A DNA stretch of 62,510 nucleotides, counting the filler. It is 7 parts of 7 records of this genome, joined end to end, with 100 filler letters (N's around TTAATTAATTAA, not from the genome) between each part and the next. Parts side by side here need not be neighbours in the genome. Positions count along the whole stretch, not along the records: positions 31,905 to 42,954 come from SRR31156797_70839; 6 more parts are not named here. One strand, written 5' to 3'. Position numbers and translations under genes: made by a program. Shown piece by piece: positions 16,277 to 56,002 of the stretch. The number at the start of each line of letters is the position of its first letter. Positions within the stretch are counted from its first letter, which is position 1. The notes under the pieces were generated by a model, which was given only the letters and a program-made list of their open reading frames with translations, was not told the origin of the DNA and did no database searches.

Positions 16277-16376
16277 NNNNNNNNNNNNNNNNNNNNNNNN
16301 NNNNNNNNNNNNNNNNNNNNTTAATTAATTAANNNNNNNNNNNNNNNNNNNNNNNNNNNNNNNNNNNNNNNNNNNN
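16277..16376. other. Artificial contig linker
   Basis: N-run + TTAATTAATTAA (stops in all six frames) + N-run, 100 nt. Confidence 0.99.
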
Positions 16377-19690: not shown

Positions 19691-19702
19691 GAGGAGGCCG
19701 AA

Positions 19703-20482
19703 GTGAAAAATAGTGTTGAATTTAAAGTAACGGGTCGGCATGCCTTGTTTACCGACCCCGTAACCAGAATGGGTGGTGAAAAATGTTCGTACCACATTCC
19801 CACATACGAAGCATTAAAAGGGATTTTGAAGTCCGTGTACTGGAAGCCTACGTTGATCTGGATAATCGATGAAGTTCGGATAATGAAACCGATAAAGACG
19901 GAAGCCAAAAGCGTTAAGCCATTAAATTACAATGGAATTTACCCTTCTCAACGAGACCCGATAAAAAAGCAAGAAGCATTCAATACCTTGGCGGTGTATA
20001 CGTATCTTGCTAATGTCGAATATCAGGTAAAGGCACACTTTAAGTGGAATTTGTTCCGCGAAGATATGGCCGCGGATCGCATCAATGGAAAACATTTTCA
20101 GATTGCAAAGAGAATGATTGATAAGGGGGGGAGACAGGATATCTTTCTCGGCGCTCGAGAGTGTCAGGGTTATGTTGAACCGTGTGTTTTCGGGGAAGGA
20201 GATAGCGCATATGATGATATTGAGCGCTTAGATTACGGCATTATGTTTCATGGGTTTGACTATCCGGATGAAACAGGGAAAACGGACGAAAATGGCAAGC
20301 CCGATAAAGCTGGGACATATCGCCTTCATAGTCGATTCTGGAAACCGGTCATGCAAAAAGGAACAATCAAGTTTATCCGACCTGAACAATGCACCATGCG
20401 GAAATTTGTGCGCGAAATGATACCCAACCCTCCACAATCCAAAGGTCTTAATGAGGAGGCACTGCAAAATGAGCTGGATTGA
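19703..20482 (+). CDS. cas5: Type I-C Cas5 (Cas5d)
   Basis: ALFTDP, SYHIPTYEALKGIL, YWKP, FLGAREC. Confidence 0.95.
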   Translation: MKNSVEFKVTGRHALFTDPVTRMGGEKCSYHIPTYEALKGILKSVYWKPTLIWIIDEVRIMKPIKTEAKSVKPLNYNGIYPSQRDPIKKQEAFNTLAVYTYLANVEYQVKAHFKWNLFREDMAADRINGKHFQIAKRMIDKGGRQDIFLGARECQGYVEPCVFGEGDSAYDDIERLDYGIMFHGFDYPDETGKTDENGKPDKAGTYRLHSRFWKPVMQKGTIKFIRPEQCTMRKFVREMIPNPPQSKGLNEEALQNELD

Positions 20483-22430: not shown

Positions 22431-23238
22431 AATCGATTTTGCCGTTATATTCAAAGTTAAAAATGCTAATCCAAACGGAGATCCACTTAACGGAAACCGG
22501 CCTCGTACAAATTATGACAGGATCGGGGAAGTCTCAGATGTATGCATCAAACGAAAAATCAGAAACCGTCTCATGGAAGAAGGAAAACCAATTTTTGTCC
22601 AGTCAGATGACAATAAAATTGATGAGTGCAAAAATCTCCGTGAACGTGCTGAAATAATTCTGGATTCAAAAAAGTCTTCCATTGAGAATGCCAAGTTGGC
22701 TTGTGAAAAATGGTTTGATGTCCGAGCATTCGGTCAAGTTTTTGCGTATGGAGGAAATAAAAAAGGGACTGGGGTGTCAATCGGCGTAAGGGGACCGGTT
22801 TCGATTCATACGGCTTTTTCATTGTCTCCAGTGGATATTACAAGCACCCAGATCACCAAAAGCGTGAGTGGTGAGGGTGACGGATCGAAAAAAGGTTCCG
22901 ATACAATGGGAATGAAACATCGTGTGGATGAAGGGGTCTACGTTTTTTATGGCAGCATGAACCCTCAGCTGGCCACCAAAACTGACTTCAGTAATGAAGA
23001 CGCCTTGGCGATAAAAAATATTTTACCGAAACTTTTTGAAAATGATGCATCCTCCGCTCGCCCGGAAGGGAGCATGGAAGTCTTAAAACTGGTTTGGTGG
23101 GAGCATAATTGCCCACATGGGCAGTATTCATCAGCAAAAGTTCACAGAAGCCTTTCTGTCAATCCGGATGGTTCCCTGGACCCGAAAATGATTGAATCCC
23201 TTGATGGCTTGAAACCAGAGATTATTGATGGCTTTTGA
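22414..23238 (+). CDS. cas7: Type I-C Cas7 (Csd2)
   Basis: NPNGDP, SDVCIKRKIRN, DVRAFG, TMGMKH, FENDASSARP. Confidence 0.96.
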   Translation: MSLKNKIDFAVIFKVKNANPNGDPLNGNRPRTNYDRIGEVSDVCIKRKIRNRLMEEGKPIFVQSDDNKIDECKNLRERAEIILDSKKSSIENAKLACEKWFDVRAFGQVFAYGGNKKGTGVSIGVRGPVSIHTAFSLSPVDITSTQITKSVSGEGDGSKKGSDTMGMKHRVDEGVYVFYGSMNPQLATKTDFSNEDALAIKNILPKLFENDASSARPEGSMEVLKLVWWEHNCPHGQYSSAKVHRSLSVNPDGSLDPKMIESLDGLKPEIIDGF

Positions 23239-23278
23239 TTGTTCAATAATGCAGGAGTCTTGATCGGAGAACAAAACT

Positions 23279-23558
23279 GTGAACTACACCGAAAACAACC
23301 TCCTTCCCCCTATCCCGGCTCCAGTATCTGCTGTTCTGCGATCGCCAGTGCGTTCTTATCCACATAGGGCAATCGTGGGCCGAAAACCGTTTCACAGCTG
23401 AGGGGAGAGTCATGCACGAGAGCGTCGATAAAGAAGATCGGGAATTCAGATGCGGTATTCGGGTTGAATACAGCATGTCCTTGAAATCCCTTAGGTTCAA
23501 GCTCATTGGGAAAGCGGATGTGATGGAATTTCATCGAAACAGCGATCAACCTGGCTGA
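23279..23558 (+). pseudogene. cas4: Truncated, frameshifted 5' fragment of cas4
   Basis: Reads NYTENNLLP/LSRLQYLLFCDRQCVLIHIGQSWAENRFTAEGRVMHE...KADVMEFHRNSDQPG*, paralogous to the intact cas4. It has an extra C in a C5 run and stops before the nuclease core is complete. Confidence 0.9.
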
Positions 23559-23621
23559 AAATGTGCGTCTTTTCAGTTTGATAACGAACCTAGGAAAGCT
23601 GGATAAGGACCATTATTAGAA

Positions 23622-23921
23622 CTACGCAACCTCTTTCAGCACTTTGACCTCTTTCCGAAGCCGTTCGCCTAGTTTCATGCGGGTGTTCTCGGTTTCGTAG
23701 TGGGCCTGGATACCAGTCCAGAATTCGACTGAGGTCCCGAAATAGCGAGCCAGGCGAAGGGCCGTATCAGCACTGAGCCCGGATTTTTCGTTACAGATTT
23801 TACTGATCCGCATAGCGGGCACATTGATATCAGCAGCGAGTCGGTACTGGCTGATGCCCATGGGCTTCAGAAATTCCTCCCGGAGGATTTCGCCGGGATG
23901 AATGGGGGGGAAATCTCTCAT
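23622..23921 (-). CDS. higA: HigA family antitoxin (HTH)
   Basis: PIHPGEILREEFLKPMGISQYRLA...ADTALRLARYFGTSVEFW. Confidence 0.95.
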   Translation of the reverse strand: MRDFPPIHPGEILREEFLKPMGISQYRLAADINVPAMRISKICNEKSGLSADTALRLARYFGTSVEFWTGIQAHYETENTRMKLGERLRKEVKVLKEVA

Positions 23922-23930
23922 GATTATACC

Positions 23931-24212
23931 TTAATGATAGTCTACGATTTCAACACTCTGAACATTGTCGCCACGCCATTCAAAGCAGACACGCCATTGT
24001 CGGTTGATGCGAATGGAATGTTGGCCCCTCCGGTTTCCGCTTAGAGCCTCCAGGCGGTTACCGGATGGGATGCGCAGGTCGTTCAGCGATTGGGCAAAAT
24101 GAAGCATTGTCAATTTACGCGCGGCCAAGCGCTGAATATCCTGAGGCAGCTTTTTTGAAAAGCGACCCCTAAAAAGCTTTTCAGTTTCGAGGCACTTGAA
24201 TGATGTGATCAT
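23931..24212 (-). CDS. higB: HigB/RelE family toxin
   Basis: MITSFK...DLRIPSGNRLEALSGNRRGQHSIRINRQWRVCFEW...VEIVDYH; toxin-first gene order. Confidence 0.95.
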   Translation of the reverse strand: MITSFKCLETEKLFRGRFSKKLPQDIQRLAARKLTMLHFAQSLNDLRIPSGNRLEALSGNRRGQHSIRINRQWRVCFEWRGDNVQSVEIVDYH

Positions 24213-24248
24213 TTTAATAAGAGTAACCTTTAAAGATACTATCGTCAA
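24213..24248. promoter_or_regulatory. Overlapping divergent promoters for higBA (-) and cas4 (+) with central palindrome
   Basis: Minus strand TTGACG-17-TACTCT-7nt-ATG(higB); plus strand TTAATA-17-TACTAT-5nt-ATG(cas4); palindrome CTTTAAAG at 24228-24235. Confidence 0.6.
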
Positions 24249-24898
24249 TGGTTATGATTTTTTCTGAAGACAATCTCCTTCCCCTCTCCGGCCTTCAGCA
24301 CCTGCTGTTCTGTGAACGCCAGTGTGCGCTCATACACATAGAACGGTTGTGGGCCGAAAACCGTCTTACGGCGGAGGGTAGGATAATGCATGAACGGGTC
24401 GACCGTGAAGACCGGGAAACCAGGGGCGCGGTCCGGGTGGAATACAGCATGGCATTGAGGTCCCTTCGTCTTGGGCTCATTGCCAAAGCCGACGTAGTGG
24501 AGTTTCACCGTAACAGAGACGATCCCGACGGACAATGGGTGCCATTTTCGGTGGAGTACAAACGCGGCAAGCCAAAAAAGGACAATTCCGACAAAGTGCA
24601 GCTATGCGCCCAAGCGCTTTGCATTGAGGAAATGCTTAATATTGAAGTGCCTTCGGGTGCTCTTTTTTATGGGAAAACCCGTCATCGACTAGATGTTGAT
24701 TTTGACGAAAGCTTGAGAACGGAGACGAAGGAAACCGCCAGGCGCTTTCATGCGCTTTTTGAAAATAGAGTAACACCAAAGGCACTATATTCAAAAAGAT
24801 GCGACAGCTGCTCCATGAAAAACCTTTGTCTTCCAAAGACTGTAAACAAGGCCAGATCAATTGAAAAATATCTTAGGGATGAAACGGTAGAGCTATGA
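24248..24898 (+). CDS. cas4: CRISPR-associated Cas4
   Basis: FCERQC, KADVVE, VEYKRG, QLCAQ, CDSCSMKNLC (Fe-S cysteines). Confidence 0.96.
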   Translation: MVMIFSEDNLLPLSGLQHLLFCERQCALIHIERLWAENRLTAEGRIMHERVDREDRETRGAVRVEYSMALRSLRLGLIAKADVVEFHRNRDDPDGQWVPFSVEYKRGKPKKDNSDKVQLCAQALCIEEMLNIEVPSGALFYGKTRHRLDVDFDESLRTETKETARRFHALFENRVTPKALYSKRCDSCSMKNLCLPKTVNKARSIEKYLRDETVEL

Positions 24899-25926
24899 AA
24901 AAACACCTGAACACATTGTTTGTAACGACCCAGGGAGCCTATCTGTCAAAGGAAGGTGAAACGGTTCTGGTCCGCGTGAAAAAGGAAACCCGGCTACGCG
25001 TTCCGATCCATACGTTGGGAGGGATTATATGCTTCGGGAATGTTCTTTGCAGCCCTTTTTTAATGGGATTTTGTGCAAAAAGAGATGTGACGGTCAGCTT
25101 TCTTTCAGAACACGGCCGTTTTCTTGCCAGAGTCCACGGGCCTGTATCCGGCAATGTGCTTTTGAGAAGGGAACAATATCGGCGTGCCGATGACCTGAAC
25201 ATATCGGCCCGAATGGCCAGATGGGTGTTAACCGGAAAGCTGGCAAATTGCCGAACCGTTTTGAAAAGGGGTTTGAGGGATCACGGTCAAAAATTGAACC
25301 ATGCTGAAGTTCAGGAAGCCACGAAAAGACTCGGCAATTCATTGGAAAATCTTCAAAACGGCCTGCCACTGAACAGTCTGCGGGGTATTGAAGGAGAGGC
25401 GGCTCATGCCTATTTCAGCGTCTTTGATCATTTGATTGTAAGCCAGAAAGATGCTTTTGTTTTCAAGGAAAGGAACCGCCGCCCGCCGCTTGATCGGGTC
25501 AATTGCCTGTTGTCTTTCATTTATACCCTGTTGGCCCATGATGTTCGATCAGCGCTTGAATCCGTTGGACTGGATCCGGCTGTGGGATTTCTGCACAGGG
25601 ACCGGCCGGGCAGGCCGGGTCTGGCCCTCGACATGATGGAGGAGTTTCGACCATTTCTGGCAGATCGGATGGTTTTCTCATTGATAAACTTGAATAAAGT
25701 TCAGAAGGGCGGTTTCACGGAGAGCCAATCCGGTGCCGTCCTGATGGATGATGAAACGCGAAAAACCGTTCTTGTGGCGTATCAGACACGTAAACAGGAT
25801 AAGATATTTCACCCTTTCATTGAGGAAAAAGTAACCATCGGCCTTCTGTTCCACATACAGGCCCTTTTGCTGGCCCGATACCTCAGAGGAGATCTGGATG
25901 GTTACCCGTGTTTTATCTGGAAATAG
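24895..25926 (+). CDS. cas1: Type I-C Cas1
   Basis: LNTLFVTTQG, LRGIEGEAA, RNRRPPLD, GFLH, LALDMMEEFR. Confidence 0.97.
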   Translation: MKKHLNTLFVTTQGAYLSKEGETVLVRVKKETRLRVPIHTLGGIICFGNVLCSPFLMGFCAKRDVTVSFLSEHGRFLARVHGPVSGNVLLRREQYRRADDLNISARMARWVLTGKLANCRTVLKRGLRDHGQKLNHAEVQEATKRLGNSLENLQNGLPLNSLRGIEGEAAHAYFSVFDHLIVSQKDAFVFKERNRRPPLDRVNCLLSFIYTLLAHDVRSALESVGLDPAVGFLHRDRPGRPGLALDMMEEFRPFLADRMVFSLINLNKVQKGGFTESQSGAVLMDDETRKTVLVAYQTRKQDKIFHPFIEEKVTIGLLFHIQALLLARYLRGDLDGYPCFIWK

Positions 25927-26643: not shown

Positions 26644-26743
26644 NNNNNNNNNNNNNNNNNNNNNNNNNNNNNNNNNNNNNNNNNNNNTTAATTAATTAAN
26701 NNNNNNNNNNNNNNNNNNNNNNNNNNNNNNNNNNNNNNNNNNN
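26644..26743. other. Artificial contig linker
   Basis: N-run + TTAATTAATTAA + N-run. Confidence 0.99.
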
Positions 26744-31804: not shown

Positions 31805-31904
31805 NNNNNNNNNNNNNNNNNNNNNNNNNNNNNNNNNNNNNNNNNNNNTTAATTAATTAANNNNNNNNNNNNNNNNNNNNNNNNNNNNNNNNNNNNNNNN
31901 NNNN
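31805..31904. other. Artificial contig linker
   Basis: N-run + TTAATTAATTAA + N-run. Confidence 0.99.
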
Positions 31905-31905
31905 A

Positions 31906-32067
31906 CCCTTTTTCACCACCAAGGAGGTGGGCAAAGGGATGGGTCTGGGGCTTGCCATTATTTATGAAATTGTGGTGGAGCACGGGGGCGAGATCCGCGT
32001 GCACAGTGGAGCGGGGATCGGCACCACATTTGTTGTGTTGTTGCCCATGTGCGGGCATGATATTTAA
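31906..32067 (+). CDS. C-terminus of a sensor histidine kinase (HATPase_c), 5' truncated
   Basis: [28 protein letters not shown]...GTTFVVLLP*; absent from the ORF track. Confidence 0.9.
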
Positions 32068-32079
32068 GGAGAAATTGAT

Positions 32080-32463
32080 TTGAAGCAAAAGGTTTTGATT
32101 ATCGATGACGAAAAACCGACCCTGGACATGTTTGAACTCTTTCTGGAAGCGTATGGGTTTGAAGTTCTGACCGCTGAAAACGGCGAAGAAGGGATCATGG
32201 TCTTTGAAAAGGAAAATCCGTCCATAGTGTTCACGGACATCAAGATGCCGGGGATAGACGGGTTTAAAGTGTTGGAACGGATTAAAACAATTTCGCCCGG
32301 CGCAGTGGTGATTGTCATTACCGGTCACGGGGATAAGGAACTGGCCAAGAAGGCGCTCGATCTGAAGGCAACGGATTTCATCTATAAGCCCGTTCAGAAA
32401 GAAGCCCTTGACGCGGCCCTCGAAAGGGCGGAAAAGGTGCTGAACAATGGGGCGGGTGTTTAA
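32080..32463 (+). CDS. Single-domain response regulator (receiver)
   Basis: IIDDE, FTDIKMPG (phospho-Asp), ITG, KP. Confidence 0.93.
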   Translation: MKQKVLIIDDEKPTLDMFELFLEAYGFEVLTAENGEEGIMVFEKENPSIVFTDIKMPGIDGFKVLERIKTISPGAVVIVITGHGDKELAKKALDLKATDFIYKPVQKEALDAALERAEKVLNNGAGV

Positions 32464-32477
32464 GGGATAGGCTCCTC

Positions 32478-35456
32478 ATGGCAGGGTTAATGGGTTTGCG
32501 CAATTCCGGGCATCGGCTTCGATTCGTGATCAGGCATCCCTGGCTCATGCTGATCCTGATCGGTCTCATCACCCTCCTTTTTGCTTTGAAACTGCCGGAA
32601 CTTCGCTTCCGGACCTCCATATACGATCTGGCCATCGAAAACCTTCCGGAAAGCGTCTACTATGGTCAGTTCAAAAAAATCTTCGGCAGCGAGGAGATGA
32701 TACTGGTGGCGGCCAGGGCCGACAACCTCTTCGCCCCCGAAACATTTGCGCGCCTGGGAGCCGTTGGAGAAGCCATTTCAAAGATCCCGGGGGTGAGTCG
32801 GGTCTTGAGCCTGCCGAGTATCAAAGGGGACATGGACCTCACCTCCCGCTGGACCCCGGGGGAATTCAGGGAAATCATCGGTCCCATTGAACTTTTCAAG
32901 CGGAATTTCCTCTCGGAAGATCAGAAAACCGGCGTAATCTCCGTCATCCTGGATGATGTGCGGGATAAAACACCCGTCATCGAGGCCATCGGTCGGATTT
33001 TGGAAAATGAGACCCTTTCCCTCTACCAGATCGGTATGCCATTGGTGTCCCGGGCCCTGGCCGCCTACACCCAAAGCGATTTTTTTAAACTGCCGCCCGT
33101 CACTTTTGTGATCATGGCCCTGGTATTGCTCTTCCTTTTCAGGGATGTGCGATCCGTTTTAATCCCCACCGGGTCGGTCCTTTTCGCCATGGTCTGGACA
33201 TTCGGCATGATGGCCTGGACCGGTACCCCCATATCGCTTCTGACCATGATCGTGCCCATATTTCTCATCGCCGTGGGTACGGCCTACTGCATGTATATCC
33301 TTTCCGCTTACCGAACCGAGGCGGAAGTTTCGGATTCTTCCAAAGAGGCTGTTTATGCATGCTTTATCCAGGTGCGGTTTCCAACGGTCCTGGCAGTGAT
33401 CACCACCACCATCGGCATCGGCTCCCTCATGCTGAACCGGATTTACAGCATTCAGACCTTTGCCGCTTTCTCCTGCCTGGGGCTTTTGAGCATGCTGGTG
33501 ATGATGCTGGTTGCCGTTCCGGCCACCCTGGCGGTTCTGCCGCTGCCCAAAAGCGCAAAAGTGAGGGTCGGCGGCCCCATCAAGGCCTTTTTAAAGAAGG
33601 TCATTTACCTCAATATCAAATGCCGAAAATGGGTGCTGGCGGCGGTTTTGATGATCAGTCTCCTTGCCGGTATCGGCATCACCCGGATCCATGTGGAAAC
33701 AAACCCGGTGGGGTTCTTTAAAAAAAACACCCCCATCAGCCGGCACTTTGAAGATATCTCAAAACAGACCTCCGGCAGCTTTCCGGTCAATGTGGTATTG
33801 GATGCCCGGACCGAGGGGTATTTTGAGGATCCCGCCCACCTGGTGCAGATTGAAAAAATCCAAGGATTCTTAAATACCCTGGATGGCGTGGATAAAACCG
33901 TTTCCCTGGTGGATTTCTTGAAACTGGTGAATTATGCCACAGACCGGTACCAGAAAACATCGTACGCCCTTCCCGAAGAACCCTTTGAGATTCGCATGCT
34001 CATTAACAGCTACAAAACCATGCTGGGGCAGGAGATGTTCCATCGTTTCATGGACCCGGAAATGAAACAGGCCAATATCCTGCTCCGGACCCATATCGCC
34101 GGATCACGGGATTTCCTGGCCTTGAAACGGAAGATCACCGATTTTTTAAGGGAACACTTCGGGGAGCAATTTGACGGCCATGTGACCGGGTTCGGGATCG
34201 TCATCTCCCAGAGCAGCCAACTCCTCACGGAAGGTCTGGTGAAAAGCCTGTCCCTGACCCTGATACTCATTATTGCGGCCATGAGCCTGTTGTTTCTTTC
34301 CGCCAAAGTGGGTTTGATGGCCATCGTGCCCAATCTTTTTCCCATTATCATCAGTTTCGGCCTCATGGGTTGGCTGGGGATCGAGCTTTCCGTTGCCACC
34401 AGCCTTATTGCCAGCATCGCCATCGGTCTGGCCGTGGACGATACCATCCATTACCTGGTGCGTTACAATCATGAATTCAAAAAGGACCTGGACAAAGACC
34501 GGGCCCTCCGCGATACCATTTACGGGGTGGGAAGACCGATCATATTCACCACACTGGCCATCAGCCTGGGGTTTTCCGTCCTGGTTTTTTCCCATTTCAA
34601 GCCCACGGCGGTGTTCGGCCTCCTCATGGTCGTCACCATGGTGGCTTCCCTGGGGGGCGCCCTGCTGATCCTTCCATCCGTTATGCTCCATGTGGAACTG
34701 GTGACCGCGTGGGACCTGCTGCGACTCATGCCCACCATGGGCGGCATCTCCCCCGGGTTGGCCCATGAACTGAACCAGCCGCTGAATGCCATCAAGGTAG
34801 GGAGTGAATTTTTGAAGATGATGGCCCGGAGAAAGCAACCGGTGCCGGACGAGCGTCTTCTGCAGGTTTCCACCGAGATCAGCGGGCAGGTGGACCGGGC
34901 ATCGGTCATCATCAATCGCCTCACCGAGCTGGAGGAAAAACGGGGGTTCCAAAAAGAAAAGGTTCAATTAAATGATGTGATCCAAAAGACCATTGCCATC
35001 ATTGAGCAGCAATTGCTGCTCGATGATATCCGGATTACCCTGGATCTGCAAAAAGACCTGCCGCTGATCCTGGGGCAGGGCAACCGCCTGGAGCAGGTCA
35101 TGTACAACCTCCTTTCCAATGCCGCCGATGCCATTATGGCCGTTAAAAATGGGACCCGGGGGATCAAGGGGCGTCTCATCGCCATCCGGTCCTTCACGGA
35201 GCAGAACCGGGTCAAGGTTTCCGTATCCGACACCGGCATCGGGATTCCCGCGGAATTGCGGGACCGCATCTTCGAGCCCTTTTTTACCGGCAAGGAAGCG
35301 GGGAAAGGGGCGGGGCTGGGACTGTGCATCAGCCGGGAGGTGGTGAAGAATCATGGTGGGCGCATCCGGGTAAAAGCCTGGGAAATGCAGGGGAGCACCT
35401 TTGTTTTGAGTTTTCCGAAGAGCCCGGGAAACCAGGGAGATATAATTCCGAAATAG
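32478..35456 (+). CDS. MMPL/RND-family membrane protein fused to HisKA-HATPase histidine kinase
   Basis: Two repeats of TM + large loop + 5 TM with FGSEE and GLAVDDTIH, then AHELNQPL, NLLSNA, DTGIG, FEPFF and GAGLGL in a single frame. Confidence 0.9.
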   Translation: MAGLMGLRNSGHRLRFVIRHPWLMLILIGLITLLFALKLPELRFRTSIYDLAIENLPESVYYGQFKKIFGSEEMILVAARADNLFAPETFARLGAVGEAISKIPGVSRVLSLPSIKGDMDLTSRWTPGEFREIIGPIELFKRNFLSEDQKTGVISVILDDVRDKTPVIEAIGRILENETLSLYQIGMPLVSRALAAYTQSDFFKLPPVTFVIMALVLLFLFRDVRSVLIPTGSVLFAMVWTFGMMAWTGTPISLLTMIVPIFLIAVGTAYCMYILSAYRTEAEVSDSSKEAVYACFIQVRFPTVLAVITTTIGIGSLMLNRIYSIQTFAAFSCLGLLSMLVMMLVAVPATLAVLPLPKSAKVRVGGPIKAFLKKVIYLNIKCRKWVLAAVLMISLLAGIGITRIHVETNPVGFFKKNTPISRHFEDISKQTSGSFPVNVVLDARTEGYFEDPAHLVQIEKIQGFLNTLDGVDKTVSLVDFLKLVNYATDRYQKTSYALPEEPFEIRMLINSYKTMLGQEMFHRFMDPEMKQANILLRTHIAGSRDFLALKRKITDFLREHFGEQFDGHVTGFGIVISQSSQLLTEGLVKSLSLTLILIIAAMSLLFLSAKVGLMAIVPNLFPIIISFGLMGWLGIELSVATSLIASIAIGLAVDDTIHYLVRYNHEFKKDLDKDRALRDTIYGVGRPIIFTTLAISLGFSVLVFSHFKPTAVFGLLMVVTMVASLGGALLILPSVMLHVELVTAWDLLRLMPTMGGISPGLAHELNQPLNAIKVGSEFLKMMARRKQPVPDERLLQVSTEISGQVDRASVIINRLTELEEKRGFQKEKVQLNDVIQKTIAIIEQQLLLDDIRITLDLQKDLPLILGQGNRLEQVMYNLLSNAADAIMAVKNGTRGIKGRLIAIRSFTEQNRVKVSVSDTGIGIPAELRDRIFEPFFTGKEAGKGAGLGLCISREVVKNHGGRIRVKAWEMQGSTFVLSFPKSPGNQGDIIPK

Positions 35457-35532
35457 GGGACAGTTGTCAGGGGGCAGGATGAAAAACCATTATCAAAAGC
35501 AAATCGCGAACGACCAAGGACGGAGTCACGTC

Positions 35533-36906
35533 ATGCATTCCCTTTTCAATCCCGAATCCGTAGCGGTTATCGGCGCCTCCGACAACCCGTCAAAGCTCGG
35601 GTATCACGTCATGAAAAGCCTGGTGAACGGCGGATTTGCGGGCGCCATCATACCGGTCAATCCGGGGGCGGACCGGATCTTCGGTTTCAAGGCCTGCGCA
35701 TCGGTAGCGGCATCCGGTATTCCCATCGATCTGGCCATTGTGGTGGTGCCTTCGGGAAGGGTTCCGGCCGTTTTTGAAGAATGTGCGGCGGTCAATGTTA
35801 GGGGAATCGTGCTCATTACCGCGGGCTTCAAGGAGATCGATGATCCGGCGGGGATTGTTCTTCACGGGGAGATTGCACAAATCGTTCAGGGAGGGCAAAT
35901 ACCCGTTATCGGACCCAACACCTTCGGCATGATAAACCTGAGGGCGAATCTGAATGCCTCCTTTACCCCCGAGTTTTCGAGACTGAAGCCGGGAAACATC
36001 GCCCTGGTGAGTCAGAGCGGCGGCATCTCGCACCTGCTGGGATTCCTGGGCATGCGTGACGGTGTGGGGTTTTCTAAAATCGTGGGTCTGGGCAACCGGC
36101 TCAATATTGATTTCGCGGAAATGGTGGATTATCTCATGGAAGATACGGATACCCGCGCCCTGGCTCTCTACGTGGAGGGGATTGATACCCCCAAGGATTT
36201 GATGGCCGCAGCCGTGCGACACGCCGGTAAAAAGCCCATTGTGGTCCATAAGAGCGGCAGCAGCGCTGTGGGGGATGCCGCCGCCCGGTCCCACACCGGC
36301 TCCCTGGCCGGCCGGCACGAGATCTATACCCATGCCTTCAAGCAGGCGGGGATCCTGGCGGTTGACTCCACCCGGGCCCTGCTGGATGCCTCCAAGGCCC
36401 TGGCTTCGTGCCCCATTCCTTCGGGACCCGGTGTGGCGGTGCTCTCTGGCCAGGCGGGTCCCTCCATGGCCGCCTGCGACGTGTGTGAAAAGCGGGGGCT
36501 TGAAATCGTCCGGTTTTCCATGAAAACCCAAAACCGCATCAACGAGCTGCTGCCGCCCCTGGCCCTTCGAACCAACCCGGTGGACATGGGACCCGCCTGG
36601 TACGATTCGGATGCCATCGGGGGAATCGTTCAGGCGGTCATGGACGATGAAAAGGTCCACGGGATTCTGTTTCTGATGATGTTCGCTTCCGCCAATGTGG
36701 AGGCGTTGAAGGGGATCAGCGGCCTGTTGGAACAGTGGGCACAGAAAAAACCGGTGGTGAGCTGCATCCTGTCGCCGCCGGGGATATGGGATGACCGGAT
36801 TGAGGCCCTTGAAAATGCGGGAGCACTGGCCAATTACCCCACGCCCGAGCGGGCTGCCGGTGTGATGGGGGATCTTTTGGCATACGGACGGCTGCAAAAA
36901 ACGTGA
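35533..36906 (+). CDS. ADP-forming acyl-CoA synthetase alpha-type (CoA-binding) subunit
   Basis: LFNPESVAVIGAS, IGPNTFG, SQSGG, SHTGSLAG (phospho-His), NPVD. Start could be 35479. Confidence 0.9.
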   Translation: MHSLFNPESVAVIGASDNPSKLGYHVMKSLVNGGFAGAIIPVNPGADRIFGFKACASVAASGIPIDLAIVVVPSGRVPAVFEECAAVNVRGIVLITAGFKEIDDPAGIVLHGEIAQIVQGGQIPVIGPNTFGMINLRANLNASFTPEFSRLKPGNIALVSQSGGISHLLGFLGMRDGVGFSKIVGLGNRLNIDFAEMVDYLMEDTDTRALALYVEGIDTPKDLMAAAVRHAGKKPIVVHKSGSSAVGDAAARSHTGSLAGRHEIYTHAFKQAGILAVDSTRALLDASKALASCPIPSGPGVAVLSGQAGPSMAACDVCEKRGLEIVRFSMKTQNRINELLPPLALRTNPVDMGPAWYDSDAIGGIVQAVMDDEKVHGILFLMMFASANVEALKGISGLLEQWAQKKPVVSCILSPPGIWDDRIEALENAGALANYPTPERAAGVMGDLLAYGRLQKT

Positions 36907-36956
36907 AAATCAGAAGAGGATCTTGTTTCTAAATTCCTTTTATTCACCATTGAATG

Positions 36957-36985
36957 AAAGCCCTGTCTTTCCGGCAGGGCTTTTT
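36957..36985 (+). terminator. Rho-independent terminator
   Basis: AAAGCCCTGTC-TTTCC-GGCAGGGCTTTTT. Confidence 0.8.
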
Positions 36986-37082
36986 AAATGACCCTTTCAT
37001 TTTAGGTCGGAAAGTGTTACCTTTTCACCGCCGGTTCACGGTGTATTAACAGTAAAAGATAGCGTTAGGTATTGAGGTATTT

Positions 37083-38462
37083 ATGGAAACAACTACAAAA
37101 GAAGCCTTAAGGGCGATTGCGGGTGATGAGGGCTTTTCCGATTCTCTCATGGACCTGGTTGCCTACTCAAAAGATGCGTCGGAACACCAGCATCGGCCCC
37201 ATGCGGCCCTTTGGCCGGTGAACGCGGAGCAGATTTCCAAGGTGCTGAAACTGGCCAACGAAAAGGGATTCCCGGTGATTCCGCGGGGGGCCGGAACATC
37301 CCTGGCCGGTCTGGCAACGCCCGGGAAGGGGGGCTTAATCCTTGATCTGGCCCGAATGGATCGAATCATCGATATCCGCATAGAGGACCGTTTGGCCGTG
37401 GTGCAGCCCGGAGTGATTTATGCGGACCTGGCCCGGGCCCTTTCACCCTATGGATTTTCATTTCCCCCGGATCCGGCCAGCGGAAGTGTCTGCACTCTGG
37501 GAGGGAATGTGGCCACCAATGCCGGCGGCATCAAGGGGGCCAAATACGGCACCACCAAGGATTATGTGCTCGCCCTGGAGGTGGTGCTCCCCGACGGGCG
37601 GATACTGCATACCGGCTCCAAATGCATGAAAAGCGTTTCCGGTTATGATTTGACAAGGCTTTTCGTGGGGTCCGAGGGGACACTGGGGGTCATTACGGAG
37701 ATCACCCTCAAGATCAGTCCCAACCCGCCGGTGACCTCCACGGCCATGGCCACCTTTGAAAGGCTGGAGGATGCGGGCCGGGCGGTGAGTGAAATCATGT
37801 ATTCCGGGATCATCCCCAGCGCCCTTGAGATCGTGGACCAGCAGAGCCTCATGGCCATTAACCGGAACACGGATTTGAATCTGCCCGAAGTGGAGGCCAT
37901 GCTGGTGGTTGAGACCGATGGCTACACCCAAAACGATACGGAGTTTCAAATGGGGAAGGTTCTGGCGGTTTTCAAGAAGAATAATGCCCTAAACCTTCAA
38001 CATGCGGAAAAAGAGGAAGATGCGGCCGCCCTCTGGACGGCCCGAAAGTCCGCTTACGGGGTCATGGCGCGCATTAACAACAACCTGGCCGTGGAAGATC
38101 TGGCGGTCCCCATGAGCAAGGTTCCCGAAACCCTGCGGGCCATCTCGGATCTGGCGGAAAAATACAACCTCCGGATCCCCACGGTGGGCCATGCCGGGGA
38201 CGGCAACCTTCATCCCGTGATCAGTTATGACGGCACCGACCCGGATGAAGTCAAGAGGGTGGAAGAAGCATCGGCCGAACTGTTTGAAACGGTGGTGGGT
38301 TTGGGGGGGACCCTCACCGGCGAGCATGGGATCGGCCTGGCCAAGATCCCCTACATGGGGCTGGAGCACGATGCGGTGAGCATGGATGTGATGCGATCGG
38401 TGAAATCACTTTTTGATCCGAACAATATTCTCAATCCGGGCAAAATGGGATTGGAGGCGTAG
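37083..38462 (+). CDS. glcD: GlcD-like FAD-linked oxidoreductase (glycolate/D-lactate dehydrogenase subunit)
   Basis: PRGAGT, PDPAS, GSEGTLG, GHAGDGNLH, GEHGIG, DPNNILNPGK. Confidence 0.9.
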   Translation: METTTKEALRAIAGDEGFSDSLMDLVAYSKDASEHQHRPHAALWPVNAEQISKVLKLANEKGFPVIPRGAGTSLAGLATPGKGGLILDLARMDRIIDIRIEDRLAVVQPGVIYADLARALSPYGFSFPPDPASGSVCTLGGNVATNAGGIKGAKYGTTKDYVLALEVVLPDGRILHTGSKCMKSVSGYDLTRLFVGSEGTLGVITEITLKISPNPPVTSTAMATFERLEDAGRAVSEIMYSGIIPSALEIVDQQSLMAINRNTDLNLPEVEAMLVVETDGYTQNDTEFQMGKVLAVFKKNNALNLQHAEKEEDAAALWTARKSAYGVMARINNNLAVEDLAVPMSKVPETLRAISDLAEKYNLRIPTVGHAGDGNLHPVISYDGTDPDEVKRVEEASAELFETVVGLGGTLTGEHGIGLAKIPYMGLEHDAVSMDVMRSVKSLFDPNNILNPGKMGLEA

Positions 38463-38472
38463 AAACAATATA

Positions 38473-39567
38473 ATGTATGATTTTGAAAAACAGTTTCGGG
38501 ATGAGGTGCTACGGTGTTCCAATTGCGGGTTCTGTCGCGGGGTCTGCCCCCTGTTCGGGCTGACCAAACGTCCGGCCTTCAATGCCCGGGGCAAGATGTT
38601 GATATTAAAAGAGGTGATGGACGGGCGCATTGACCTGGACGGCCAATTGGTGGATACCCTGTTCCAGTGCACCACCTGCGGCGCCTGTGCCCAACAATGC
38701 CCGTCCGGGGTGAACCCGCCGGAGATTATCAAGCAGGTCCGGAAGGACATGGTCCAACATGATTTTTGCCATCCCGCCTTTGAAGGGATGAACAAGGTTC
38801 TTTCGGAACACACCAATATCTATGGGGAAGATGACAGGGAGGATTTTGAGCGGGAGCGGAACCGGATGGCGGAATGCGTCTATTTTATCGGGTGCGTCGG
38901 TTCCTACCGGGAAGACGAGGCCACCCTGGCGGCCCTGGACCTGCTGGATCACCTGAAAGTGGATTATACCCTGATCGATGAAGTGTGCTGCAGCGGCGTG
39001 CTGGATGATGTGGGTTTTCAGACCCAGGCGGATTTGGCCGGAAAAAACGTGGATCTGATCCTCAAAACGGGTGCCAAGACGGTCATTACCGGTTGCCCTT
39101 ACTGTTTCAGGACCTTCCATGACAGGCCCGCCTATGAGGCCCTTGGGGAGAACGGCATCGAAGTGGTCCATATCAGTCAGTTTTTAAGGGATTTTGATAT
39201 GGGGGTTGAAACCGAAAAGAAGGTCACCTACCATGATCCCTGCGACCTGGGCCGGCACTGCGGCATCTATGATGGGCCCCGGGAAACCGTTCAAAAGATA
39301 GCCCCTGATTTTGTGGAAATGAGACACCATGGGGAGGATGCCCTCTGCTGCGGGGCCGGGGGGGGCGTTCGGGGGGCATATGCTAAAAATTCCATCGCCA
39401 TGGCCCGCAGGCGGTTGGAGGAAGTGGAAGAGATCGGGGCGGAAATCGTTTTGACGGAGTGCAACTCCTGTGTGCATAACCTGAGCAACGCCAAATTGAG
39501 ATCTCAAAAATTCAAGGTGTATACCACCACCCAGTTTATCAACAGGCTCATTGAAGGGGAAGAATAG
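38473..39567 (+). CDS. glcF: GlcF-like Fe-S/CCG-domain subunit
   Basis: CSNCGFCRGVCP, CTTCGACAQQCP, CCSG, YHDPCDLGR, CCGAGGG. Confidence 0.88.
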   Translation: MYDFEKQFRDEVLRCSNCGFCRGVCPLFGLTKRPAFNARGKMLILKEVMDGRIDLDGQLVDTLFQCTTCGACAQQCPSGVNPPEIIKQVRKDMVQHDFCHPAFEGMNKVLSEHTNIYGEDDREDFERERNRMAECVYFIGCVGSYREDEATLAALDLLDHLKVDYTLIDEVCCSGVLDDVGFQTQADLAGKNVDLILKTGAKTVITGCPYCFRTFHDRPAYEALGENGIEVVHISQFLRDFDMGVETEKKVTYHDPCDLGRHCGIYDGPRETVQKIAPDFVEMRHHGEDALCCGAGGGVRGAYAKNSIAMARRRLEEVEEIGAEIVLTECNSCVHNLSNAKLRSQKFKVYTTTQFINRLIEGEE

Positions 39568-39590
39568 AACAATGGGGAGGGTGCAGGATT

Positions 39591-40877
39591 ATGGATTCGC
39601 ATAGCCGATCGTCCATGGGATTACCGCAAATGAGATGGGTGCGCCAGAGTGCCGACATTCCGCCGGCGGTGGATGTTCCGGCGGAACTGGAACGGGAATG
39701 GCGCCGGATTAAGGACCGGTTGTCTTTACCGTCCGGGGCGGGTGTCGCCATCGGTGTGGGGAGCCGGGGTATTGCCAACCTGGGACCGGTGGTTGGGGCC
39801 GTGGCGGCCGGCTTGAAAAGTGTGGGGTATCGGCCTTTTGTGACCCCGGCCATGGGGTCCCACGGGGGTGCCACGCCGGAAGGCCAGATGGAGGTGCTGC
39901 GTGCCCGGGGCATTACGGAAGAGACCGTGGGCGTGCCGGTTCGGGCCACCATGGATGTGGTATCCATGGGGGAGGCGGACGGCATCCCTTTGTTTCTGGA
40001 CCGATTGGCCCATGAAGCGGACGGCATTGTGCTGATCAACCGCATCAAACCCCACACCAACTTCATCGGCCCCACGGAAAGCGGCCTCATCAAAATGATG
40101 GCCATCGGACTGGGGAATCAGGTGGGTGCCGAGCATTACCACCGCCTTTCCGTTGTGCGCAGCCAGTATGAGATTATCAGCACCGCCGGAAAAGAACTGA
40201 TCCGGAAAAGTCCGGTGCTGTTCGGCGTGGCTCTTTTTGAGAACCAGCGCCATGAGACGGCGGCCGTCAGAATGGCCCTGGCCCATGAAATAGAATCCGT
40301 TGAAGCCGGTCTCCTGAAAAAAGCCCGGAAATGCCTGGCCACCCTGCCGCTCGATGAGATCGATCTCTTGATTATCGACGAGATGGGCAAGGAGATCAGC
40401 GGCGAAGGGATCGATCCCAACGTGGTGGGCCGCGACGTGATTGCGTATGGGGCAAAACGTCCTTTACCCAGAATTACCCGTATCTTTGTTCGGGATCTCA
40501 CAGAGGCCAGTGAAGGGAGCGGTGTGGGCATTGCACAGGCGGATTTCACCACCCAGCGCCTGGTGGACAAGATCGATTTTCATGCCACGGCCATTAACTG
40601 CCTCACCGCCTGTGCACCCGAAGGAGGGAAAATCCCCCTGACCTATGCAACCGACCGTGAAGCCATTGAAAGCGCATTGGTAACCCTTCGGCCTTCGGAA
40701 ACCCGGGATTTGCGCATTGTGCAGATCCGGAACACCATGGCGCTCATGACCCTGCTGGTCTCCACGGCCTGTTTGCCGGAATTAAAGGGGAAAGCGGGAA
40801 TATTCGTGGATCCCCGTGACATAACGCTCACATTTGATGATGACGGCAATCTGATTCCCAGAAGCCTGGGGGCTTAA
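39591..40877 (+). CDS. Lactate racemase (LarA)-like domain protein
   Basis: GSRGIANL, PAMGSHGGATPEGQ, NRIKPHT, ESGLIKM, GKEISGEG. Confidence 0.75.
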   Translation: MDSHSRSSMGLPQMRWVRQSADIPPAVDVPAELEREWRRIKDRLSLPSGAGVAIGVGSRGIANLGPVVGAVAAGLKSVGYRPFVTPAMGSHGGATPEGQMEVLRARGITEETVGVPVRATMDVVSMGEADGIPLFLDRLAHEADGIVLINRIKPHTNFIGPTESGLIKMMAIGLGNQVGAEHYHRLSVVRSQYEIISTAGKELIRKSPVLFGVALFENQRHETAAVRMALAHEIESVEAGLLKKARKCLATLPLDEIDLLIIDEMGKEISGEGIDPNVVGRDVIAYGAKRPLPRITRIFVRDLTEASEGSGVGIAQADFTTQRLVDKIDFHATAINCLTACAPEGGKIPLTYATDREAIESALVTLRPSETRDLRIVQIRNTMALMTLLVSTACLPELKGKAGIFVDPRDITLTFDDDGNLIPRSLGA

Positions 40878-40882
40878 GGGGG

Positions 40883-41959
40883 TTGAATATGGAGGAAATA
40901 TCAAAGAAGGGAGGGTATCGGTTCAAGGACCTTCTGGAGGATCCGGAAACAAACGGGCGGTGGGAAAGGGTGCGCCGTTATTTTTTTCTGCGGGAATCCA
41001 CCTATGACATGACCCATCGCTGCAACATCCGATGCGACGGTTGTTATTATTACGAGGGGGAGAAGCAGTTCGCCCGGGAGAACGTGGATCCTGATCAATG
41101 GCGAAAACTCATGGAGGCGGAGAAAGGGCGGGGCATAACCTATGTGGTTCTGGCGGGCGCCGAACCGTCCCTTGTGCCGGATCTTTGTGATGTCTGTTAC
41201 CAAGAAATACCCCTGGGCGCCGTTGCGTCCAACGGGTTAAGGAAAATCCCCGAGTCGGTCGGTTACAAAATCCATATTTCCGTCTGGGGAAACGATGAGA
41301 CCAGCGCCCGGGTCCGCCACCGGAAAGGGATGCTGCAGCAACAGATTGCCAACTACCAGGGGGATGAGCGGGCGGTCTTTGTCTACACCTTCACCCGCGA
41401 CAACATCGGGGATGCCGAAGCCGTGCTGGATATCCTTGCGGAAGCGGGGTGCAAGGCCACCTTTAACATGTTTTCGGCACCCGTGGGGTACGAAGGCCCC
41501 CTCCGCCACACGGAAGCATCTCTGAAACATGTTCGGGAAACCATGATGATGCTTCTCTTAAGATATCCCGAAACGGTCCTCTTTTCTCCCTATAATATCG
41601 TGGCCCATACCCACCCTTTAGGTCTCCATGCCCTCTACGCCTGCCCATACCCCAGGATGAACCCTTCAAAAGCCCAGGGGCTGGGGCGTTCTTTCAGGCA
41701 GTATCGCACGGATCTCACCTGGAACCGGGCGGCTGCCTGCTGCGTTCCGGATACGGATTGCCATGATTGCCGGCATTACGCCGCCGGGAGCGCCATTGTA
41801 ACGGCGAAGCTGTTCCGCCACGGAACCGAACCCCACACATTCAAATCCTGGCTGGACTATGTGGATACCTATCTTTCGGTGTGGGTGATGGGGTATGAAA
41901 AAGGTGTTAATTTGTGTTCGGATTTGGTGCCTCCCCCCGGGCATGCGCTTTTGATTTAA
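40883..41959 (+). CDS. Radical SAM protein
   Basis: CNIRCDGCY (CxxxCxxC), GAEP, SNG, C-terminal CCVPDTDCHDC. Confidence 0.88.
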   Translation: MNMEEISKKGGYRFKDLLEDPETNGRWERVRRYFFLRESTYDMTHRCNIRCDGCYYYEGEKQFARENVDPDQWRKLMEAEKGRGITYVVLAGAEPSLVPDLCDVCYQEIPLGAVASNGLRKIPESVGYKIHISVWGNDETSARVRHRKGMLQQQIANYQGDERAVFVYTFTRDNIGDAEAVLDILAEAGCKATFNMFSAPVGYEGPLRHTEASLKHVRETMMMLLLRYPETVLFSPYNIVAHTHPLGLHALYACPYPRMNPSKAQGLGRSFRQYRTDLTWNRAAACCVPDTDCHDCRHYAAGSAIVTAKLFRHGTEPHTFKSWLDYVDTYLSVWVMGYEKGVNLCSDLVPPPGHALLI

Positions 41960-41960
41960 G

Positions 41961-42015
41961 CTGTTAGCTGTTAGCAGGTTTTATAAGCTAAACGCTAATG
42001 CCTAACAGCTAACGG
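41961..42015. repeat. Intergenic heptamer inverted-arm element
   Basis: CTGTTAG x2, short spacer, then CTAAACG CTAATGC CTAACAG CTAACGG. Confidence 0.8.
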
Positions 42016-42042
42016 CCCCTTAAAATTAAGGAGTACTTCTGA

Positions 42043-42954
42043 ATGAAAACCGTTAGTTCCCTGCTTAACGAAGAATGGTACAACCGCTACAAAAAAATTT
42101 CCAAGTTGAACATCCGAAGTTCCATTTACGATGTCACCAATCGATGCAACCTACGGTGCAAGGGGTGCTTTTTTTTCTCCTCCGGGGAACATGAAGCGGC
42201 CCGTGAAGAGATGGATATAAAAAAATGGGAGACTTTCATCCATGGGGAAATGGCAAGGGGGGTCAATCTGGCTATTTTGATCGGCGGGGAGCCCACCCTT
42301 TGTCTCGACCGGGTGGAGGCTTTTTACAGCCGGTTGCCCACCTTCTGTGCCACCAACGGCCTCATCAAGGTGCCGAGAGACCGATTTCCCCACATGATGG
42401 TGGGGATTTCATTGTGGGGCGATGAAGAAGATGAAAAGACCCTCAGGGGAAAGGATACCTTTTCCATCTCCAGCAAACACTATGCCGGCGATCCCCACGC
42501 CTACTACCTCTATACCATTACCCCCAAGCAGATGGGGAAAACGGAACAGCTGGTTCAAAAAATCAGGGACGTTGGGCTGAAAGTCCATATGCAGCTCCTT
42601 TCAAATGATGAAGGGGTGGATCAATTTTTCTGGAGCCAAGAACATCTGAACGATATTCGGGACGAAATGGATTATATGCTGGATCATTATCCCGACACGG
42701 TCATTTCATCAAAGTACTACCATGCGGTCATCACCACCGGTCAGATGCTGAACCGTTCCTTCGGGTGGAATGAGTGCCCTTCCGTCACCGAACCCCTGGA
42801 CAGAAGAGATCCCGGCCCCAAACGCCTCATCGGCTTTATCCGGTGGGCATCGGATCTTAAAACCATGCACCGGTGCTGCACATCCGAGACGAGGGACTGT
42901 TCAACTTGCAAGGACGGGGCCGCCCACATGAGCTGGGTCATGGTCAACAAACGG
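42043..42954 (+). CDS. Radical SAM protein (paralog of the upstream gene), 3' truncated
   Basis: CNLRCKGCF, GGEP, TNG, CCTSETRDCSTC. Confidence 0.88.
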
Positions 42955-43054
42955 NNNNNNNNNNNNNNNNNNNNNNNNNNNNNNNNNNNNNNNNNNNNTT
43001 AATTAATTAANNNNNNNNNNNNNNNNNNNNNNNNNNNNNNNNNNNNNNNNNNNN
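42955..43054. other. Artificial contig linker
   Basis: N-run + TTAATTAATTAA + N-run. Confidence 0.99.
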
Positions 43055-50211: not shown

Positions 50212-50311
50212 NNNNNNNNNNNNNNNNNNNNNNNNNNNNNNNNNNNNNNNNNNNNTTAATTAATTAANNNNNNNNNNNNNNNNNNNNNNNNNNNNNNNNN
50301 NNNNNNNNNNN
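50212..50311. other. Artificial contig linker
   Basis: N-run + TTAATTAATTAA + N-run. Confidence 0.99.
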
Positions 50312-54613: not shown

Positions 54614-54624
54614 GAAATCCTCCC

Positions 54625-55311: not shown

Positions 55312-55331
55312 GTCGGCCTCCAATATCTTCT

Positions 55332-55718: not shown

Positions 55719-55728
55719 TTTCTCCCTA

Positions 55729-55902
55729 TTACTTACAAACATCATCTAAAGATGGACTCTGCGCCATACTGGAAACATCTGTTGATTTATTACCTGTCTC
55801 CTTATGCAGTCTCATAAAGTTACTTGACTCACTTGTTCCAAGCACTGAACCGAAATAGATCCAGCATTCATTATAAGTATCTGCAATATGAGGGTTCACA
55901 TC
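55729..55902 (-). CDS. C-terminus of an unknown protein, 5' truncated
   Basis: Open frame from the contig edge (DVNPHIADTYNECWIYFG...DDVCK*) ending just before the pilin RBS. Confidence 0.5.
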   Translation of the reverse strand, partial: DVNPHIADTYNECWIYFGSVLGTSESSNFMRLHKETGNKSTDVSSMAQSPSLDDVCK

Positions 55903-56002
55903 NNNNNNNNNNNNNNNNNNNNNNNNNNNNNNNNNNNNNNNNNNNNTTAATTAATTAANNNNNNNNNNNNNNNNNNNNNNNNNNNNNNNNNNNNNNNNNN
56001 NN
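55903..56002. other. Artificial contig linker
   Basis: N-run + TTAATTAATTAA + N-run. Confidence 0.99.

Follow-up and report, generated by a model that had tools for sequence, protein, structure and literature searches.

A gene joining a complete MMPL/RND transporter body to a complete histidine kinase core was found in a 62,510-nucleotide stretch of DNA (the window, meaning the whole stretch analysed). Its product of 992 amino acids, P0001, is in our view probably, though far from certainly, a membrane sensor kinase whose input is the RND body and which shares one single-domain receiver with a Cache-PAS kinase. The window is a concatenation of seven contigs with spacers of the form N44-TTAATTAATTAA-N44 at the six junctions and, since the contigs are merely joined by these spacers, adjacency across them is without meaning. 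The contig carrying the fusion gene spans positions 31905-42954; position 31905/31906 is the start of this contig and of no gene. It opens with three closely packed genes on the + strand, namely a kinase fragment, a receiver gene and the fusion gene, the last having the following parts (TM, transmembrane helix; DHp, dimerisation and histidine phosphotransfer domain; ORF, open reading frame):

32478..35456, + strand: MMPL/RND-histidine kinase fusion gene (P0001), 992 amino acids, ATG start, intact ORF
32478..34685, + strand: MMPL/RND body, residues 1-736, by Pfam, model helices and Foldseek
33267..33293, + strand: TM4 motif IAVGTAYCM, residues 264-272, with Tyr270 and no acidic residue
34422..34454, + strand: TM10 motif IGLAVDDTIHY, residues 649-659, with Asp654-Asp655, the presumed proton-relay site
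34686..34763, + strand: juxtamembrane coupling segment and linker, residues 737-762, with conserved HVELVTAWDLLRLMP and Gly/Pro-rich MGGISPGL
34764..34766, + strand: codon of His763, the predicted phospho-acceptor, invariant and aligned to the ZraS H box
34755..35423, + strand: kinase core, HisKA/DHp (760-820) and HATPase_c (868-982), by Pfam, with N, G1, F and G2 boxes

Based on Pfam searches, the membrane part of the fusion protein comprises two stretches of MMPL (PF03176; 1.2e-27, 97.2 bits against a cut-off of 20.5), together with matches to Sterol-sensing (residues 233-353, 3e-6) and Patched SSD (604-723, 7e-7). It is followed by HisKA (760-820, 7e-7, 29.6 bits against a cut-off of 26.9) and HATPase_c (868-982, 1.6e-23, 83.7 bits), and no Pfam match to PAS, HAMP, STAC or SSF/SLC5 was obtained in the protein. 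An AlphaFold model built on 28 relatives (local confidence score, pLDDT, 79.3; predicted template modelling score, pTM, 0.66) displays 12 TM helices, two periplasmic domains, a two-helix DHp (long helices at 759-785 and 791-819) and an alpha/beta ATP-binding domain. TM1 is followed by periplasmic domain 1 (residues ~45-186) and TM2-6, and TM7 by periplasmic domain 2 (~402-571) and TM8-12, which is the RND plan of two homologous halves, each made of one TM, a large periplasmic domain and five further TM. Foldseek searches with the membrane part retrieved MmpL5, MmpL4 and MmpL3 as best matches (target TM-score 0.75-0.79), then HpnN, NPC1, Dispatched and Patched. TIGR00921 (HAE3) was the best-scoring transporter model, with 211.3 bits and its cut-off of 351.9 not reached, and several family members are named HAE3 by JGI.

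The closest sequences to the kinase part were ZraS (2.2e-26) and the AtoS/ZraS NCBIfam models. In an alignment of 28 relatives (49-89% identity), the H box (H763 in AHELNQPL), N box (NLLSNAADA, 877-885), G1 box (DTGIGIP, 918-924), F box (FEPFF, 932-936) and G2 box (GAGLGL, 944-949) are invariant, including N881, D918/G920/G922, F936 and G944/G946/G948; D655 is also invariant, and D654 is conserved in at least 90% of the sequences. By these boxes the product is assigned to the class-I (HisKA) histidine kinases and is predicted to be active. The layout given in the preliminary description, a two-repeat MMPL/RND body linked by about 25 residues to intact H, N, G1, F and G2 boxes with neither PAS nor HAMP, was borne out by Pfam, the alignment and the structural model alike, and its reading of the relay helices, with GLAVDD kept in TM10 and AVGTAY lacking an acid in TM4, was equally accurate.

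That the fusion might be a misassembly or a singleton had been raised from the outset. The artefact could also take the form of two genes merged by a frameshift or of a pseudogene in decay, and the draft metagenome-type assembly, in which the contig begins inside the upstream kinase, invites such suspicion. However, the reading frame is open across 992 codons, and a contig of 11,047 bases from a second assembler (Logan, in a run that is possibly the window's own source) spans positions 31906-36000 with 0 differences. This is the sole DNA run in which the stretch is listed, and no RNA run is listed with it. HATPase_c is attached to the MMPL body in 119 of the best 120 among 1133 significant database matches (49-90% identity), the sole exception being a protein of 769 amino acids; one of these matches comes from a 6.5-Mb contig bearing the name Desulfatibacillum aliphaticivorans (isolate genome) and others from contigs of 1.9-3.0 Mb. 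In three genomes (G001-G003), matches cover query residues 1-982/983 with no internal stops. An artefact thus has a negligible probability and is, for practical purposes, excluded.

At least 530 relatives were confirmed in a scan with one genome for each species, and the best 80 loci were used for comparison (L001-L080). These loci come from records of Desulfobacteraceae, Desulfobacterales, Desulfatiglandales, Syntrophobacterales, Thermodesulfobacteriota or "delta proteobacterium", and include NaphS2, an isolate-type record. All of their 82 MMPL ORFs align with residues 1-750 of the fusion protein at 49-85% identity. The C-terminal tails of 80 of these were scanned, the remaining two ending at contig edges; 29 carry HisKA and/or HATPase_c, and 51 carry cNMP_binding, of which 44 also have a GGDEF match. 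At L014, L028 and L061 the MMPL ORF was missed in gene calling, and the C-termini were nevertheless scanned.

Within the fusion protein, the MMPL body appears to be the sole possible input domain. TM12 ends at about residue 736 and the phospho-acceptor His is residue 763, leaving a gap of about 25 amino acids. Column conservation among kinase-fused forms peaks at 0.83 in the linker (737-758) and 0.81 in TM8-12; the periplasmic domains (0.63-0.68) and the kinase (0.62-0.70) score lower and are conserved to a similar degree. The motif HVELVT(A/L)WDL that follows TM12 is common to the kinase class (145 sequences) and to the class with cNMP_binding and GGDEF-like domains (56 sequences); in the cNMP-only class (63 sequences) the segment is reduced to TxWD. 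From these patterns, HVELVTxWDLL is the best candidate for a coupling element between body and tail and, because no other input domain is present and this segment is conserved, the RND body would be what controls the kinase. A conformational change of the body could then pass through TM8-12 and HVELVTAWDLLxLMP to the DHp helix, which begins only ~25 residues past TM12. The trigger might be a hydrophobic or amphiphilic ligand or else a proton-coupled transport cycle of the body at Asp654/Asp655, and the kinase/phosphatase balance on His763 would shift as a result. Histidine kinase cores function as dimers, so the RND body probably dimerises as well; HpnN has been reported as a dimer.

The partners in this scheme would be a Cache-HAMP-PAS kinase and a single-domain receiver, encoded with the fusion gene in a three-gene cassette. 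As had been pointed out in the preliminary description, the fusion gene lies downstream of another kinase and a receiver, and Pfam confirmed both; the flanking genes on the contig are:

31906..32067, + strand: 3' end of the upstream histidine kinase (53 codons and stop), HATPase_c 1.6e-9, truncated by the contig start
32080..32463, + strand: stand-alone receiver, 127 amino acids, PF00072 2.9e-29, TTG start with AAGGAG 7 nucleotides upstream
35464..36906, + strand: ADP-forming acyl/acetyl-CoA synthetase alpha-like gene, CoA_binding and Succ_CoA_lig (Pfam)

In relatives the whole upstream kinase has about 625 amino acids and the architecture sCache_3_2-HAMP-PAS-HisKA-HATPase_c, as read on the L004 orthologue. 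The nine closest loci (L001-L009; 56-86% identical) share the following gene order, with which the window agrees from the kinase fragment onward:

first, an LpxG-like phosphoesterase gene (6/9 loci)
second, a fatty-acid-CoA-ligase-like gene (8/9 loci)
third, the Cache-HAMP-PAS kinase gene (9/9 loci)
fourth, the receiver gene (9/9 loci, by hidden Markov model, HMM)
fifth, the MMPL-kinase gene
sixth, the ADP-forming acyl-CoA-synthetase-like gene (7/9 loci)
seventh, often radical-SAM and ketoacyl-synthase genes

Of the 29 kinase-type loci, 19 have a receiver gene adjoining that of one of the two kinases, and the pair of Cache kinase and receiver also occurs in hydrogenase-linked loci. At the 17 loci with both kinases, these hardly differ in DHp helix 1: AHELNQPLNAIK is identical in 8/8 pairs (L001-L008) and near-identical in the other nine. 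In all three genomes G001-G003, the best match to the kinase core is the neighbouring kinase (48-49% identity). Paralogous kinases usually diverge at these DHp positions, and the near-identity of helix 1 most likely means that both kinases act on one shared receiver; they may also pair as heterodimers. The string H-E-L-N-Q-P-L (P0001 residues 763-769, positions 34764-34784) is likewise found in the Cache kinases of L001-L073, and Q767, just before Pro-Leu, corresponds to an invariant Gln in both the MMPL-kinase and the Cache kinases. The equivalent position is occupied by Thr or Asn in many HisKA kinases and is tied to phosphatase activity.

Tails of other kinds are found on this body as well. 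An unfiltered search that used just the MMPL part as query retrieved 21,961 proteins at E <=0.001, and the best 150 representatives at 50% identity were assigned to tail classes with our own HMMs:

no module (fragments included): 75/150
cNMP_binding only, about 910-930 amino acids: 59/150
cNMP plus GGDEF-like: 13/150
kinase: 2/150
GGDEF-like only: 1/150

A Pfam check of 40 representatives agreed with these classes and added one LolA-like and one TPR fusion. The larger class sets used for motif counts mix database proteins with locus ORFs, are not de-duplicated, and again include fragments under "no module". An MMPL-body tree (FastTree, midpoint-rooted) was built from 156 of 313 eligible rows, comprising 31 kinase forms (one flagged HK+GGDEF), 40 cNMP plus GGDEF-like, 40 cNMP-only and 45 without module. 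Kinase-fused and cNMP/GGDEF-like-fused forms interleave on this tree. The clade that contains the fusion protein, made of L001-L008 and two database proteins, is sister to a mostly cNMP/GGDEF-like group (supports 0.91-0.96) that includes two kinase forms, P0029 and L009, and the remaining kinase forms are placed elsewhere. Monophyly of the kinase fusions was not recovered on this midpoint-rooted tree with its short branches. The interleaving indicates that the cytoplasmic module has been exchanged more than once on one body, and we claim no particular number beyond that because the internal branches are short.

The paralogues with MMPL, cNMP_binding and a GGDEF-like domain are about 1060-1100 amino acids long (L014-L018, L026, L034-L036, L039-L080), and their MMPL body is 50-58% identical to that of the fusion protein; cNMP_binding without a GGDEF-like domain occurs in relatives that are more distant. 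All 51 of the GGDEF-like domains in this class are degenerate, with signatures such as GGNQF and DAETF, and by sequence these proteins are unlikely to be cyclases. PF00211 adenylate/guanylate-cyclase-domain genes lie directly downstream of such genes at L074, L078-L080 and L059, where they are a possible local source of cyclic nucleotide.

Several of these observations weigh against a sensor kinase controlled by its RND body. In the MMPL plus cNMP_binding relatives it is more likely that the transporter is under the control of the cytoplasmic domain, which leaves the direction of signalling in doubt; for the 59 cNMP-only and the 75 module-less forms (fragments included) among the 150 nearest representatives, the body presumably transports under cytoplasmic regulation, with signals running the opposite way. 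Two catalytic outputs on one body might be read as proof of a sensor module, but GG[DE]EF is kept in 0/51 of the GGDEF-like domains of the cNMP/GGDEF-like class, a degeneration that weakens this argument from two alternative signalling outputs. The internal branches of the MMPL-body tree are short. The MGGISPGL sequence that follows the coupling segment is Gly/Pro-rich and pLDDT falls below 50 for residues 742-760, so that a rigid relay, helical or coiled-coil, cannot be recognised. The receiver lacks an output domain. Finally, the fusion is rare in the phylum of NaphS2, with a full-length match in 2 of 301 evenly sampled genomes and the body with another tail in five more.

In a different reading, which we regard as unlikely but deserving of attention, the protein is no sensor but a working HAE3-type transporter gated by its cytoplasmic module, the kinase domain receiving a signal from the Cache kinase or the receiver and controlling transport instead of reporting on it; cNMP presumably plays the equivalent part in the cNMP_binding-fused relatives. 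The abundance of MMPL plus cNMP_binding proteins without enzymatic output (59/150) and a sister class built of cNMP_binding and a degenerate GGDEF domain fit such a regulated exporter, as do the well-conserved periplasmic domains and relay helices that match those of module-less relatives, with Asp-Asp in TM10 and Tyr in TM4. On the other side, the kinase is complete, with all catalytic boxes invariant as in an output enzyme, a cognate-looking receiver adjoins, and no domain other than the MMPL body could feed the kinase. We know of no case in which a histidine kinase core serves solely as a gate.

The preliminary description had taken the absence of the TM4 acid as a sign that the transporter fold was repurposed, and this we reject. 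The acid is missing in 142/142 kinase-fused forms and in 51/55 cNMP/GGDEF-like forms, and equally in 58/76 module-less relatives and 33/60 cNMP-only forms, the sequences that retain it reading G-S-T-E-D there; TM10 VDD is retained in all classes. Since module-less relatives lack the acid too, the asymmetry of Tyr in TM4 and Asp-Asp in TM10 is a trait of the wider clade and is uninformative on loss of transport.

In relatives, the family is also met among hydrogenase genes. A NiFe large-subunit gene is present in 43/80 loci, where small-subunit, HycI, HypD, HypE, HypF and ApbE genes are also frequent. Two types can be distinguished. The first is exported, with the signal SRRDFMKYC for twin-arginine translocation (Tat) on its small subunit, a large subunit ending in DPC[IV]AC[GA]VH[VI]IDP plus about 12 residues, and a HycI protease gene alongside; its genes immediately precede the cNMP/GGDEF-like paralogue gene and many MMPL-kinase genes. 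The cNMP/GGDEF-like paralogues were seen embedded in operons for periplasmic (Tat-exported) NiFe hydrogenase or in hyp operons. In the second type the small subunit, of 312 amino acids, carries no Tat signal and the large subunit ends in DPCLVC[TAC]VH followed by 0-24 residues. At L010, L011, L013, L020, L024, L032, L033 and L038 its large-subunit gene and then its small-subunit gene come after the MMPL-kinase, and the Cache kinase is next; the Tat signal is clearly absent in seven of these eight small subunits, the start being unclear at L038. By these features, the Tat-less enzyme encoded between the two kinase genes, MMPL-kinase and Cache-PAS kinase, resembles a sensor hydrogenase. Its ending fits the consensus SFDxCLVCTVH quoted in PMC4853749 for L2 of group 2c. 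In the clade of the fusion protein (L001-L009), no hydrogenase was found within 8 kb. At G001 and G003 a sensor-like hydrogenase occupies a separate locus beside another kinase paralogue, and in G001-G003 an exported-type large-subunit gene (weaker matches) adjoins an MMPL paralogue matched over the body only.

In another alternative, the body might report energy state, protons or hydrogenase activity: the Asp654/Asp655 relay would read the proton-motive force, or periplasmic protons released by H2 oxidation, and the kinase would add this membrane signal to an H2 signal passed by the sensor-type hydrogenase to the Cache-PAS kinase. We hold this to be distinctly improbable, although the hydrogenase genes in more than half of the loci, the paralogues inside Tat-exported hydrogenase or hyp operons and the succession of MMPL-kinase, Tat-less hydrogenase and Cache kinase in eight kinase-type loci all speak for it. 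L001-L009 lack a hydrogenase within 8 kb, and in two of the three genomes examined the sensor-type enzyme sits elsewhere, beside the other kinase paralogue. To our knowledge, no RND protein acts as a proton-motive-force sensor. The match of DPCLVC[TAC]VH to the group 2c L2 consensus (PMC4853749) also favours an energy sensor, as do the sensory groups of HydDB, which lists 2b as kinase-linked and 2c as putatively diguanylate-cyclase-linked (PMC5037454). A variant that we consider still more doubtful would have the body sense energy state with no ligand at all, the MMPL-kinase and Cache-PAS kinase, as a heterodimer or through the shared receiver, integrating membrane energy state with the signal of the sensor hydrogenase, and the cassette having moved to acyl-CoA control in the L001-L009 clade.

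These loci also bear on the nature of any ligand. The preliminary description had proposed a lipid-sensing transceptor; the fusion is real and the body is the only candidate input domain; the lipid part has weak support from the neighbourhood. A lipid is faintly suggested as ligand by the fold relatives and by nearby acyl-lipid genes, those in the closest loci being fatty-acid-CoA-ligase-like, LpxG-like and ketoacyl-synthase genes. The occurrence of the cassette among hydrogenase genes in other relatives points to energy or H2 signalling, and less to lipids. The acyl/acetyl-CoA synthetase-like gene at 35464..36906, whose product matches TIGR02717 at 1e-116, under the model cut-off, may be a regulated target.

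Further downstream on the same contig, positions 37083-40877 hold genes for a GlcD-like FAD oxidase, a CCG/4Fe-4S iron-sulfur protein and a group 22 nickel-pincer-cofactor-dependent isomerase (NF052515, 469.9 bits against a cut-off of 400), and two radical-SAM genes are present as well; the genes at 37083-40877 together look like a module for racemisation and oxidation of a 2-hydroxy acid. G+C of the seven contigs of the window ranges from 0.38 to 0.63, and the spacers between them are located at:

16277-16376
26644-26743
31805-31904
42955-43054
50212-50311
55903-56002

Other contigs carry a type I-C-like CRISPR-Cas set (Cas3, Cas5d, Csd1, Cas7, Cas4 and Cas1; 17324-25923) and an ORF at 9562-10761 with a weak reductive-dehalogenase match (9e-7, under cut-off) and 4Fe-4S, adjoining TRAP-transporter, methylmalonyl-CoA-mutase and xanthine-dehydrogenase-family genes. 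At 50312-55745 (G+C 0.38-0.44) are genes for a 1444-residue Laminin_G_3 and Lcl_C protein, a second Lcl_C protein and a ComP-like minor pilin.

Proteins of this architecture are present in databases, under names that include "MMPL family transporter" and "histidine kinase", and a full-text literature search found no paper on an MMPL- or RND-fused kinase. The architecture is therefore recorded yet undescribed, as far as this search shows. A review of kinase inputs (PMC8534201) and a preprint on CbrA (bioRxiv 10.64898/2026.03.10.710862) name only Amt- and SLC5-fused forms and mention neither "RND" nor "MMPL". The transporter folds so far known to feed bacterial kinases directly are few, with SLC5 (CbrA) and Amt (Ks-Amt5) as the examples; if the proposed function is correct, the fold of Patched, NPC1 and MmpL3 would join them, and a bacterial RND system with a built-in enzymatic read-out would be at hand for studies of how protons, ligands and motions are coupled. 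Cultured carriers appear to exist in NaphS2 and Desulfatibacillum. Within the hydrogenase-linked regulation of sulfate-reducing and syntrophic organisms of the Deltaproteobacteria type, the family represents a component not described before, and the "diguanylate cyclases" noted next to certain hydrogenases may be MMPL proteins whose GGDEF domain is non-catalytic.

Compared with described H2-sensing systems, the loci of relatives resemble HupUV-HupT-HupR and HoxBC-HoxJ-HoxA (group 2b) and the putative group 2c in having a Tat-less NiFe hydrogenase, its large subunit with little or no C-terminal extension, beside a PAS kinase and a receiver, with an exported uptake hydrogenase close by. Unlike in the Hup and Hox systems, the receiver is devoid of NtrC-type output and the fusion gene's own locus of hydrogenase; we know of no counterpart of the MMPL-kinase in these systems. 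With HAE3/MMPL exporters the protein shares the 12-TM two-repeat plan, the TM10 Asp pair at the relay position and the fold (target TM-score 0.75-0.79 to MmpL3/4/5, 0.62-0.63 to HpnN). It differs from HpnN, MmpL3 and MmpL4/5 by a sequence identity of 13-16%, a TIGR00921 score under the cut-off and a TM4 with Tyr and no Asp, and its C-terminal kinase is absent from the PDB matches listed. Eukaryotic Patched, SCAP and NPC1 tie a lipid-handling RND fold to signalling, and a likeness to them is suggested by the Sterol-sensing and Patched SSD matches and by the structural matches of the modelled RND-type fold; in contrast to the covalently attached kinase described here, those proteins signal indirectly and have no fused enzymatic output.

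The fusion is an addition to the transporter-fused kinases represented by CbrA and Ks-Amt5; like them, it unites an entire transporter fold with a kinase core in a single protein chain. In CbrA/CrbS, the literature proposes that the SLC5 fold couples transport-derived motions to the kinase (bioRxiv 10.64898/2026.03.10.710862; PMC7096432; PMC5715377). CbrA/CrbS likewise has a complete secondary-transporter fold N-terminal to the DHp and catalytic domains of a kinase, but the fold is SLC5 rather than RND/MMPL, STAC and PAS domains take the place of the ~25-residue linker between transporter and kinase, and the partner is an NtrC-type regulator rather than a single-domain receiver. In Ks-Amt5 of Kuenenia, the Amt domain is described as binding its ion and translocating it inefficiently (PMC5764959; PMC8534201), which makes this direct fusion of a transporter fold to a kinase a precedent for a transporter body acting as receptor. 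The Amt fold is trimeric there, as opposed to the RND fold of the fusion protein, whose TM4 and TM10 look like those of module-less relatives, so that no signature of lost transport could be demonstrated.

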